A stretch of 64,000 nt of DNA from contig OY729426.1 in the NCBI GenBank assembly GCA_963422365.1, forward strand, positions 736,001-800,000. The letters run 5' to 3'. The notes beneath the pieces are model-generated. The model saw only the letters and a list, made by a program, of their open reading frames with translations, was not told where the DNA came from and did no database searches. Source of the DNA: Nitrospirales bacterium. Its GTDB lineage: Bacteria > Nitrospirota > Nitrospiria > Nitrospirales > UBA8639. Shown piece by piece: positions 34,958 through 44,248 of the stretch (position 1 is its first letter; the number at the start of each line of letters is the position of its first letter). The position numbers and the translations under genes were made by a program.

Positions 34958-35166
34958 GCTCTGATGTGCCGATCTTCAGGCGAGTGCTTCGGTACCCCAG
35001 AAATTATGGGCAGTCCTCGCATCGCGTTGTTCTCTTGTCTGAGAAGGAGATACCCGAAACCTATGTGGATATTGAAAGAGAGTTCAGGTATTCTTGGAGA
35101 CATCAGAGTCCAGTGCTCGCGGTGCATCGAAATAAGCCAAACCACTCAAGGAGATCGAAGGCGGCT
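34958..35166 (+). promoter_or_regulatory. CRISPR leader
   Basis: Non-coding stretch between cas2 and the first repeat; variant repeats lie at the far end of the array. Confidence 0.75.
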
Positions 35167-37006
35167 AATTCCGAGGCATATTTGCCTCGGCCTCATTGAA
35201 GCGCCGCCCGCGTCCGTCCGGCGTTGGCGCTCGGGGAAAATTCCGAGGCATATTTGCCTCGGCCTCATTGAAGCAAATTCTTTTTGATCGCGGACAAGGT
35301 TTTGCAATTAATTCCGAGGCATATTTGCCTCGGCCTCATTGAAGCCTACGCCGCCGATTCCGGTGTGGTGCAGATCGAGAGAATTCCGAGGCATATTTGC
35401 CTCGGCCTCATTGAAGCTTGTCACTGTGGCGCTTGCGATTAATCTCATCTTGCAATTCCGAGGCATATTTGCCTCGGCCTCATTGAAGCCCCGCCTCGTG
35501 TGGGGACGGACACCACCGGGAAGAGGGAATTCCGAGGCATATTTGCCTCGGCCTCATTGAAGCGGCCGTCCACTGCGCCGCGACACTGACGATATTACTG
35601 AATTCCGAGGCATATTTGCCTCGGCCTCATTGAAGCCTCTCGAGAGTCCGCAAGCCCTGCGGCCATGCGCTAATTCCGAGGCATATTTGCCTCGGCCTCA
35701 TTGAAGCCTCGGATCATTGCTACCGCCGGCCGAGTGAGGGATCAAATTCCGAGGCATATTTGCCTCGGCCTCATTGAAGCGACGGTCGCCGAGGCGGTAT
35801 ATTGGCGCCCGGGCTGCCAATTCCGAGGCATATTTGCCTCGGCCTCATTGAAGCCTTTTTATTTTTCCCTTCTTCCCTCTTCCTTTTTAAATTCCGAGGC
35901 ATATTTGCCTCGGCCTCATTGAAGCTATTTCCACTCGCACCGCGAGTGGGGTGGGCGTGAGAATTCCGAGGCATATTTGCCTCGGCCTCATTGAAGCTTA
36001 GAATCTGATTCTAAAAACTGAATCCTCATCTCGAATTCCGAGGCATATTTGCCTCGGCCTCATTGAAGCTTTAGTCAGGGTGAGGGGCTCTCGCGCGAGC
36101 ACCAGAATTCCGAGGCATATTTGCCTCGGCCTCATTGAAGCTTTTTTGCCTTCGATTTTCATTCTTGGCGGTGTGCTAAATTCCGAGGCATATTTGCCTC
36201 GGCCTCATTGAAGCGCTCCTTGTGTCCGCCTCTCTATTTTTTTTGCCGTGAATTCCGAGGCATATTTGCCTCGGCCTCATTGAAGCCGTATACTGCGGCG
36301 CCGGCGCCGCAGCAGGCCTGGCAATTCCGAGGCATATTTGCCTCGGCCTCATTGAAGCCTTCTCCCCTTCTTCCTTCTTAATTCTTCCTTCTTAAATTCC
36401 GAGGCATATTTGCCTCGGCCTCATTGAAGCTCGAGTGCCCCCACTAATTCCTTCAAAGACTCGGATTAATTCCGAGGCATATTTGCCTCGGCCTCATTGA
36501 AGCCTTGCATGACTGATAGTAGGGGTTCCTTCAGGAACAATTCCGAGGCATATTTGCCTCGGCCTCATTGAAGCCCAGAGGGGGTATCCCTAGATGGGTA
36601 CACCCCTTCGAATTCCGAGGCATATTTGCCTCGGCCTCATTGAAGCTTGTTGCCCAAATTTGGAAAATAGAAAGGGGAAAAAATTCCGAGGCATATTTGC
36701 CTCGGCCTCATTGAAGCTTTGCTAATATTGTCAATTTGCATTCGAGCGCTATTAATTCCGAGGCATATTTGCCTCGGCCTCATTGAAGCTTGGACTCCTG
36801 CCCGCTTTCTCGACGACAATTGGATGAATTCCGAGGCATATTTGCCTCGGCCTCATTGAAGCAAAACAGACTCAGAGATAGAAGATTCTGGATTCTTACA
36901 TTCCGAGGCATATTTGCCTCGGCCTCATTGAAGCATGACGGCTGACGATCGTAATCCTCATGTCTGCACTCATTCCGAGGCATATTTGCCTCGGCCTCAT
37001 TGAAGC
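35167..37006 (+). CRISPR. CRISPR array with 26 repeats and 25 spacers (35-38 nt)
   Basis: 36-nt repeat AATTCCGAGGCATATTTGCCTCGGCCTCATTGAAGC with hairpin CCGAGGCA/TGCCTCGG and type I-G-style ATTGAAGC end; last two repeats begin with C. Confidence 0.99.
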
Positions 37007-42695: not shown

Positions 42696-43424
42696 TTATC
42701 CTGCCTCTTCGGATGGAGAAGAGCCGGAGGATGGCTTACTCTTTTTTAGCCAGATCTCGAGGAGTTCTTGATATACCTGCATCAACCGAGAATCTTCGAG
42801 GCGATAGGCCAGGGACACCATAATCAAACCGAAAAGCAAGACCAAGCCCCCTAATCCGGTCACTCCCAACGCTAAGAGCAGCCCGCCGGCTGAATCAAAG
42901 CCACCATCAATCCCGAACACGATCAGAAAAACGGCGGTGCCAATCGTCACGAGTCCTAGCCAGGTCATGGTGAGAAGACTTGAAGACCAGGGCACGCGTT
43001 TCGTGAGGTGCAATTCCACACCGGCCGCAGTGGGCTGAAGTGTGATGGTTCCTTTCAGTGGCCACGCGGTACGAAACCGCATGGAGAAGAATTGGTAAGA
43101 GGGACGAAGCGAAATCACCTCTTGCGCCCCAAACCAGCGAGCAACGCCATGTGGCAGGGCCATCGTATGGTGTTGGCCGAATTGCTGAAGAAGGGAGTGA
43201 CGGGTGAGGTGGTCGAGACGGTCATGCCGGTGGGCAATGCCGAACCCGTATTGGGCAGACAATGGCCGGAGATTGGTGAACTGATACCAGTCCGCAATAA
43301 TCAGCAGCACAAACAGAATGCCTCCAAAGATTCCGGCCAGGACCATTGTTTCTGGAACATAGCACAACTGACCCCAATTCTGTGAAGATGTCCTTTGCAG
43401 AGTCAGCGATTTGACTTTGTTCAT
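42696..43424 (-). CDS. hypothetical membrane protein
   Basis: Three hydrophobic segments; start uncertain. Confidence 0.7.
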   Translation of the reverse strand: MNKVKSLTLQRTSSQNWGQLCYVPETMVLAGIFGGILFVLLIIADWYQFTNLRPLSAQYGFGIAHRHDRLDHLTRHSLLQQFGQHHTMALPHGVARWFGAQEVISLRPSYQFFSMRFRTAWPLKGTITLQPTAAGVELHLTKRVPWSSSLLTMTWLGLVTIGTAVFLIVFGIDGGFDSAGGLLLALGVTGLGGLVLLFGLIMVSLAYRLEDSRLMQVYQELLEIWLKKSKPSSGSSPSEEAG

Positions 43425-43445
43425 GACGCTTCGCTACTATGCCTC

Positions 43446-43804
43446 TGCGGGGTGGAGCAGTCTGGTAGCTCGTTGGGCTCAATTCCGTAGGAGAGAAGGA
43501 GTGATCCGCTGATTGCTTCAGAGAGGACAATCTCTCCTACAATGGGCTGTGCAGAGGGAAACTTCTGTACGATCACCTGTCAAATTCGGGGAAGCCGGTA
43601 GCGAGGTAACCCCGAGCCAAGCTTCAAGAGTCATAGGCTCTGAAAGAAGGTGTAGAGACTTGATGGCAGGCATCCTAACGGCGGCCAAGCCGGTCCGAGG
43701 ATGAAGAGAAAGTCCAGACCACAAACTGGATTCACCAGGCAGCGAAAGCTGTAGTGGTACGCATAACCCAAAGGTCGAGGGTTCAAATCCCTCCCCCGCA
43801 ACCA
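43446..43804 (+). tRNA. initiator tRNA-Met (CAT); exons 43446-43479 and 43762-43804
   Basis: Joined exons form a cloverleaf with TTGGG-CTCATAA-CCCAA anticodon arm (3 G-C pairs), A11-U24 and encoded CCA. Confidence 0.95.
43480..43761 (+). ncRNA. group I self-splicing intron (282 nt) in tRNA-fMet anticodon loop
   Basis: 5' exon ends in U, intron ends in G; P AAATTCGGGGAA, Q AACCCCGAGC, R GTAGAGACT, S AAGAGAAAGTCC; P3 CCTGTCA/TGGCAGG. Confidence 0.93.
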
Positions 43805-43823: not shown

Positions 43824-43857
43824 GGGATCGTTCTCGTAGGACGATCCCATTTTTTTT
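43824..43857 (+). terminator. intrinsic terminator after tRNA-fMet
   Basis: GGGATCGT...ACGATCCC hairpin followed by a T-run. Confidence 0.85.
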
Positions 43858-43999
43858 GCCTTGGACATAACGGTGATGATGACTTGCATCGGATGGAATC
43901 ATCTGGGGCATTCAGCAGAAGTCGCACTGGGGATAAGTGTTTTATAGAATAACCCGAAGCCGTGTCTCATGTATTTTGGGAAAACGCAGGGAGGCAAGA

Positions 44000-44248
44000 G
44001 TGGTCAACATACGATGGTTGTGGATTCCTATGGTTGGGGCGAGCGTGTTTCTGGCATTGCCCGGCAACTCGACGATTGAAGGGGTGCTGGGCGACGTGGT
44101 GGGGCATTTTTTTACCGCTGCGCTGGTGGCCGTCGTGCCGATCGCCGGGTATCGCCTGATTTATAAATACATTGGTGAAAAGGAAATGACTTACATCTTT
44201 GCGGCAGCATGGTCCTATCTCGTGATCTCGCAATTTTTGAGGTGGTAA
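44000..44248 (+). CDS. small hypothetical membrane protein
   Basis: GGAGG RBS before GTG; three hydrophobic segments. Confidence 0.6.
   Translation: MVNIRWLWIPMVGASVFLALPGNSTIEGVLGDVVGHFFTAALVAVVPIAGYRLIYKYIGEKEMTYIFAAAWSYLVISQFLRW

Follow-up and report, generated by a model that had tools for sequence, protein, structure and literature searches.

The only initiator tRNA gene of this Nitrospirales genome is interrupted by a 282-nt group I intron between U33 and C34 of the anticodon loop. Analysis of the gene, its relatives and the intron sequence makes it very likely that this intron is an ORF-less member of the tRNA-fMet intron family (site 33/34, type fMet.2Ug, reported as subgroup IC3), that it can be expected to splice, and that it most likely represents the fixed, immobile end state of an element once spread by an endonuclease. 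It is an added case of a known family, whose insertion site, endonuclease and presence in several phyla are on record or can be read directly from public genomes.

The split initiator tRNA gene and its intron

With introns allowed, ARAGORN located a split tRNA-Met(cat) of 77 nt at positions 43446-43804 on the plus strand of the window (the whole 64,000-nt stretch of DNA that was analysed), in which a 282-nt intron separates ...GGGCU from CAUAA.... Without the intron option, the program missed the split gene, and its sole call in the window was a tRNA-Arg. The Rfam model RF00028 (Intron_gpI) matched positions 43524-43730 on the plus strand over model positions 1-253, with a score of 59.3 bits and an E value of 1.7e-12. 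The gathering score of this model is 50 bits, so the intron passes by only 9 bits; the score above the cut-off and the E value together indicate that the match is not due to chance. The elements of the gene and its surroundings are listed below, where cells are the base-pair positions counted over an alignment of relatives.

43411-43440, plus strand: promoter-like site, TTGACT, an 18-nt spacer and TACTAT (consensus match only)
43446-43479, plus strand: 5' exon, tRNA-fMet positions 1-33, last base U33 (ARAGORN, alignment)
43476-43481, plus strand: 5' strand of P1, GGCU/CA, with the 5' splice site after U43479 (helix paired in 98.8% of cells)
43480-43761, plus strand: group I intron of 282 nt without an ORF (RF00028, ARAGORN, helix count)
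43487-43540, plus strand: hairpin inserted in the P1 loop, GUAGGAGAG...CUCUCCUAC (69% of cells paired)
43543-43548, plus strand: internal guide sequence UGGGCU, the 3' strand of P1 (invariant in 14 of 14 sequences)
43549-43570, plus strand: P2 hairpin of 9 bp with a GAAA tetraloop (97.6% of cells paired)
43576-43714, plus strand: catalytic core (RF00028, helix count)
43576-43582 with 43664-43670, plus strand: P3, CCUGUCA with UGGCAGG (90.8% of cells paired)
43586-43591 with 43610-43615, plus strand: P4 (P4/P5 paired in 100% of cells)
43594-43596 with 43605-43607, plus strand: P5 (P4/P5 paired in 100% of cells)
43616-43651, plus strand: P6/6a/6b (compensatory changes)
43657-43661 with 43710-43714, plus strand: P7, GACUU with AAGUC (100% of cells paired)
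43672-43702, plus strand: P8 (compensatory changes)
43719-43757, plus strand: 3' domain (helix count)
43719-43722 with 43754-43757, plus strand: P9.0, CCAC with GUGG (helix count)
43726-43729 with 43735-43738, plus strand: P9 (2 pairs change on both sides)
43739-43752, plus strand: P9a with a GAAA loop (2 pairs change on both sides)
43761, plus strand: terminal (omega) G, just 5' of the 3' splice site (invariant in 14 of 14 sequences)
43762-43804, plus strand: 3' exon, from C34-A35-U36 to the encoded CCA (ARAGORN)
43824-43857, plus strand: intrinsic-terminator-like hairpin of 11 bp followed by eight T (sequence)

The helices were drawn on the sequence of this intron and then counted over an alignment of 14 Nitrospirota pre-tRNAs. 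Standard pairs occupy 93.6% of 1364 cells, compared with 39-47% when the partners are slid by 1-3 columns, a control that is flattering, as one of the aligned sequences was itself the source of the structure. Both sides change in 26 of 100 pairs, a number reached by 0 of 500 shuffles (12.8 ± 2.0). These compensatory changes are located in P2 (both sides changed in 5 of 9 pairs), P6, P8, P9 and the T stem; P1, P3, P4/P5 and P7 show almost no variation and therefore have no say on covariation either way. U33 (43479) pairs with G43545, and this pair is a U.G wobble in all 14 sequences. The insert in the P1 loop is 54 nt long with a 9-bp hairpin and is variable among relatives; it lies at the position where relatives carry an endonuclease ORF, and its hairpin is absent from short Omnitrophota and Planctomycetota introns. 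By eye, the guide region and the 3' exon showed no evident P10 pairing. Subgroup IC3, a label that itself comes from Williams 2020 (bioRxiv 10.1101/2020.01.27.920355), is in keeping with the absence of P5abc and with the GAAA loops that close P2 and P9a.

Examination of the whole genome, a single closed contig of 2,495,695 bp with 53.4% G+C and no N, revealed 45 uninterrupted tRNAs by ARAGORN, only two of which read CAU. Both have a G1-C72 pair and lack the GGG/CCC anticodon stem, which identifies them as the Ile2 and elongator-Met types. Each exon string of the split gene occurs once in the genome. In the spliced cloverleaf, the split tRNA has a CAU anticodon and three G-C pairs at 29-31:39-41, and its D stem GAGC/GCUC provides A11:U24, a feature of bacterial initiator tRNAs. 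The textbook bacterial initiator has a C1-A72 mismatch and thus no strong pair at 1:72; here U1:A72 (43446 and 43800) forms a weak Watson-Crick pair. The 1:72 position is U:A in 11 of the 14 Nitrospirota sequences and C opposite A in the other 3, and U1 opposite A72 was also seen in some Acidobacteriota and Omnitrophota loci. The gene is the only initiator-type tRNA gene of the closed genome. As no other initiator gene is present, every round of translation initiation would depend on removal of the intron, and we infer that its splicing must be essential.

These results agree with much of the original prediction. The 282-nt group I intron after U33, with a U-G pair in P1, with P3 and P7, and with a terminal G, was borne out by RF00028, ARAGORN and the helix count, and the covariance model proposed as a check returned 59.3 bits against the cut-off of 50. 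The gene count that it called for, on which the essential role of splicing was made to depend, returned this gene as the only initiator, the two other CAU tRNAs being of the G1-C72 kind and the exon strings unique. The genome was also correctly judged to be non-cyanobacterial: the Pfam family Photo_RC gave 0 matches with a positive Synechococcus control, which rules out a cyanobacterial origin of the genome.

The surroundings of the gene contain putative signals for transcription. The promoter-like site has 9 of 12 consensus matches (1 site, compared with 0.5 ± 0.7 in shuffles) and ends 5 nt before tRNA position 1, and the terminator-like hairpin lies about 20 nt 3' of the CCA. Bracketed by these two sites, the split tRNA-fMet gene looks like a transcription unit of its own and, to judge from these motifs, is probably transcribed by itself. 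The ORFs on either side, 43937-44248 (plus strand, 103 aa) and 42696-43424 (minus strand, 242 aa), have no Pfam match; the region 3' of the tRNA gene is 74-84% conserved within the genus, though the ORF there has no such match. Elsewhere in the window, a CRISPR array at 35166-37006 (plus strand) contains 26 repeats of 37 nt that match RF01330 (CRISPR-DR16) with 35.5-42.3 bits.

Descent of the intron in Nitrospirota

The distribution of the split gene was followed by its junction pattern, a terminal G followed by the conserved 3' exon. Within the genus, the junction is present in 35 of the 37 other genomes, and an uninterrupted initiator tRNA gene was found in 0 of 38. The two that lack the junction are draft assemblies (90 and 150 contigs), in which no part of the gene was found. 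At the level of the order, the junction occurs in 48 of 201 sampled genomes, this genome included; by taxonomic family, the counts are 43 of 87 in its own and 3 of 87, 1 of 21 and 0 of 5 in the others. In the phylum, it was found in 24 of 301 sampled genomes, which include all 18 other genomes of the genus that were drawn and only four from outside the order. Both flanks of the gene are conserved (74-84%) in all 6 of the same-genus loci compared and in none of 7 more distantly related Nitrospirota loci. The introns themselves share 84-86% identity within the genus, and the split arrangement recurs in many single-contig genomes of the genus. The near-universal junction and the conserved flanks together indicate that the intron is fixed and vertically inherited in the genus. 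It is thus an old resident there, and sporadic elsewhere in the phylum.

The only tRNA-Asn(GUU) gene of the genome is also split (G000:C1:343624-343981, minus strand, outside the window), by a second group I intron of 282 nt that scores 62.6 bits with RF00028. This insertion lies inside the anticodon, between positions 35 and 36 (GGCUGU/...G/UAACCG). Unlike the fMet intron it is polymorphic: 18 of 38 genus genomes and 37 of 201 genomes of the order carry it, and in the rest the exons are contiguous.

For phylogenetic comparison, a first tree was built from 66 ORF-less introns; a second also included 13 introns with an ORF, of which 5 were complete and 8 were represented by their last 215 nt alone. 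Both are unrooted and rest on about 244 columns (243-244 kept), so no donor can be named from them. In the 66-intron tree, the 14 Nitrospirota rows form one group (93/76). The intron under study lies in a 9-row, all-Nitrospirota clade, with values of 98/92* for the 66 rows and 99/95* once the ORF-bearing introns are added; the latter tree also places two Methylomirabilota introns within the Nitrospirota group (95/84*). The intron also shares one starred group (98/82*) with 38 cyanobacterial rows. Starred pairs join Pseudomonadota with Vulcanimicrobiota, Actinomycetota with Muproteobacteria, Elusimicrobiota with Planctomycetota, and Bacteroidota with Elusimicrobiota; these cross-phylum pairs show that the tRNA-fMet intron family crosses phyla, with the caveat of binning errors. 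Identity between this intron and the cyanobacterial introns is about 69-72%, a value computed with a one-base offset of negligible effect, and this copy bears no sign of recent import from cyanobacteria.

Endonuclease, splicing and alternative explanations

Comparison with longer introns of the same type revealed how the family may have moved. All 13 of the same-type introns examined that extend past 500 nt contain an ORF. Three of these 13 ORFs were scanned with Pfam, and all three match PF11645, a PD-(D/E)XK endonuclease family, with 97-99 bits. One ORF searched against the PDB matched 2OST_A with an E value of 1.2e-40; its depositors named it "Putative endonuclease", and we take it to be I-Ssp6803I. 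The five complete introns, of 647-659 nt, come from Blastocatellia, Snowella, Methylomirabilota, a Nitrospiria genome and Planctomycetia. In these complete long introns, the endonuclease frame begins 20-30 nt past the 5' splice site, inside the P1 loop, and continues through the guide sequence (..QWA.. = CAAUGGGCU), P2, P3 and P4. In loci L128-L132, the catalytic core is thus made of bases that also encode protein (..QWA..PVKFGEA..).

The core of the intron studied here is 84-86% identical to those of three long ORF-bearing introns. The intron itself contains no endonuclease, and its 282 nt leave no room for an ORF; a free-standing endonuclease beside the tRNA gene was likewise not found, the downstream ORF at 43937-44248 having no Pfam match. 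A genome-wide scan with PF11645 gave 0 matches, but its positive controls were silent too. We also considered the P1-loop insert as a remnant of an endonuclease gene and rejected this candidate, as only its last ~15 nt up to and including the guide resemble the 3' end of the ORF, which is too little.

The proposed mechanism is as follows. Transcription would start from the promoter-like site just upstream and run to the terminator-like hairpin about 20 nt past the gene. P1, with its U33.G wobble, would form in the precursor between the exon end GGCU and the internal guide UGGGCU, and a free guanosine bound at P7 would attack after U33. The terminal G43761 would next take the P7 site, leading to exon ligation. 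Ligation would join ...GGGCU to CAUAACCC, which would restore the anticodon loop CUCAUAA and the anticodon stem with the three G-C pairs of an initiator tRNA. As to its history, an ancestral element would have spread by endonuclease-driven homing into the conserved anticodon region of tRNA-fMet, and the present copy would be its fixed remnant.

A different view of the splicing step would keep the intron as real and make its removal in the cell dependent on a host protein or chaperone, as for several organellar group I introns. This is unlikely, although the 54-nt insertion in the P1 loop, the competition of P1 with the anticodon stem for G30-G31 and the lack of an evident P10 pairing point in that direction. 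The intron has a small, complete core and no maturase-like neighbour gene, the cyanobacterial tRNA-fMet intron is called 'self-splicing' in the title of a publication on it, and both P2 and P9a end in GAAA tetraloops, like the Azoarcus IC3 ribozyme. The latter ribozyme is self-splicing, with GAAA tetraloops on P2 and P9 and no P5abc extension. A dead intron in a pseudogene, or an artefact of assembly or binning, has an almost negligible probability. The genome is closed in one contig without N and has no other initiator gene, the exons are intact and invariant, and compensatory changes are present. In addition, the core is 93% conserved over the kept columns, compared with 74-84% for the flanks, and the same arrangement recurs in many single-contig genomes of the genus. 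These observations outweigh the failure of standard tRNA finders to call the gene and the origin of some related matches from dubious bins, such as a locus that falls inside Nostoc (L066).

Expected self-splicing of a fixed homing remnant, our preferred reading, was also weighed against two other views of how the intron came to be kept here. A recent lateral acquisition from a cyanobacterium is highly improbable: the intron lies in the all-Nitrospirota clade (99/95*), its best cyanobacterial identity of about 72% is well below the 84-86% within the genus, 35 of the 37 other genus genomes have the junction, its flanks being conserved, and the exons match the Nitrospirota type (U1, GUGGAGCAGUCUGG) and not the cyanobacterial one. 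What speaks for such an import is that cyanobacteria share both the insertion site and the intron family, that the tree puts cyanobacterial and Nitrospirota introns into a single region of poor resolution, and that the family has a homing endonuclease and starred cross-phylum pairs, yet the unrooted tree names no donor. Accordingly, the original prediction of horizontal spread to another phylum holds for the family, which the endonuclease ORFs and the starred pairs indicate to have moved, and fails for this copy as a recent cyanobacterial import, given its all-Nitrospirota clade, its fixation in the genus and its identity of ~70% versus 84-86%; the direction of spread that it implied found no support. 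It is also conceivable, though improbable, that the amount of initiator tRNA available is controlled by how the ribozyme folds, and with it by GTP and Mg2+ supply or temperature, which would make the intron a domesticated translation checkpoint and not a neutral homing relic. The basis of this suggestion is a small-genome genus in which every assembled copy of the only initiator tRNA gene carries the fixed intron and in which, for about half of the genus, a second ribozyme also interrupts the only tRNA-Asn gene.

The intron family across bacteria

A junction scan restricted to one genome per species found at least 119 loci, which were assigned to phyla by record title: at least 41 in Cyanobacteriota, at least 21 in Acidobacteriota, at least 18 in Nitrospirota, at least 10 in Omnitrophota, at least 7 in Actinomycetota, at least 4 in Pseudomonadota, at least 3 in Planctomycetota and at least 15 in other phyla together. 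Among the 119 matches listed, 78 have non-cyanobacterial titles. The 3' end of the present intron, of the ...GUGGUAnG type (pattern ...G(U/C)(A/G)G..nG), is shared by 93 of the 119 matches listed (40 cyanobacterial, 53 not); a different end, ...CAGAUCG, is found in 18 (15 Acidobacteriota and 3 Actinomycetota), and in 8 the type of end is unclear. The 5' exon is visible in 69 of the 119 matches listed, and in 68 of these 69 a gap of 193-344 nt follows GGGCU. Of 20 related loci tested, 14 reached the RF00028 cut-off, from Planctomycetia, Bacteroidia, Elusimicrobia, a proteobacterium, Omnitrophota, Actinomycetota, Acidobacteria and two cyanobacteria; the 6 below it include a Nostoc copy.

The best-known relative is the tRNA-fMet intron of Synechocystis sp. 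PCC 6803 with I-Ssp6803I, reportedly described by Biniszkiewicz in 1994 and by Bonocora and Shub in 2001. It shares the host gene and, by the fMet.2Ug label, the same U33/C34 site. The Synechocystis intron itself is outside the loci compared, and the long relatives of the present intron encode a 2OST_A-like protein. Compared with these ORF-bearing relatives of ~650 nt, the present intron has 282 nt and no ORF, resides in Nitrospirales, is a fixed feature of its genus and shows no evident mobility. The ORF-less cyanobacterial introns (Nostoc, Scytonema, Trichodesmium erythraeum IMS101) have the same site, architecture and ...GGUAnG end. They are 237-312 nt long, mostly 244 nt, and lie between exons of the cyanobacterial type with C1; the present intron has a larger P1-loop insertion. 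Another small bacterial tRNA group I ribozyme is the IC3 intron of Azoarcus pre-tRNA-Ile(CAU) (PMC13168695). It belongs to a different sequence family and interrupts tRNA-Ile2 on the 3' side of the anticodon, where the present intron occupies site 33/34 of tRNA-fMet.

A survey by Williams 2020 (bioRxiv 10.1101/2020.01.27.920355) reported 5292 split tRNA genes in 80,413 bacterial genomes and tabulated by phylum four classical bacterial types, one of which, fMet.2Ug, fits the present intron exactly (anticodon-loop position 2, U at -1, terminal g); the IC3 label of all four types comes from the intron database cited there. The novelty implied by the original prediction therefore did not survive, as 78 of the 119 matches listed are non-cyanobacterial and the class had already been tabulated by phylum in that survey. 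A full-text literature search, whose scope did not extend to the phylum table of Williams 2020, found no publication describing the Nitrospirales tRNA-fMet case. Passages of reviews describe bacterial tRNA group I introns as cyanobacterial and a few proteobacterial ones, with the tRNA-fMet intron as a laterally acquired cyanobacterial one (PMC4033280, PMC3984707), and I-Ssp6803I and its close homologues are, in a passage of a further paper, "generally encoded in cyanobacteria" (PMC3384342). In the relevant portion of the tRNAscan-SE 2.0 paper, group I introns are stated to hide tRNA-fMet or tRNA-Ile2 in 36 genomes, with two cyanobacteria named for fMet.

These observations matter for annotation, because standard finders miss the gene and make this genome and its relatives look as if they had neither an initiator tRNA nor a tRNA-Asn. 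They also bear on printed accounts, passages of which call tRNA-fMet introns and I-Ssp6803I essentially cyanobacterial (PMC4033280, PMC3384342); two thirds of the matches listed are not. With an ORF-less ribozyme fixed in an essential single-copy gene, the genus would illustrate cleanly, in nature, how a homing cycle ends, and it is a possible source of compact natural ribozymes.

The scan also detected a second kind of tRNA-fMet intron at the same junction, in L025, L038, L041 and 15 other loci (Acidobacteriota, Gaiellaceae). These introns are about 238-260 nt long, end in ...CAGAUCG, and repeat the start of the 3' exon (CAUAACC...) at their 5' end; all 3 of those tested reach the RF00028 cut-off, with 51-57 bits. 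Locus L066, titled Acetobacteraceae, has a Nostoc-type intron and exons and nests inside the Nostoc clade (see also L031 and L032). It is probably a mis-binned cyanobacterial contig, which means that taxon counts based on genome-bin titles carry some error. In locus L019, from an Acidobacteriaceae bin, a seemingly intact tRNA-fMet gene is directly followed by a second copy of the 3' exon, which looks like a partial duplication of the 3' half of the gene.
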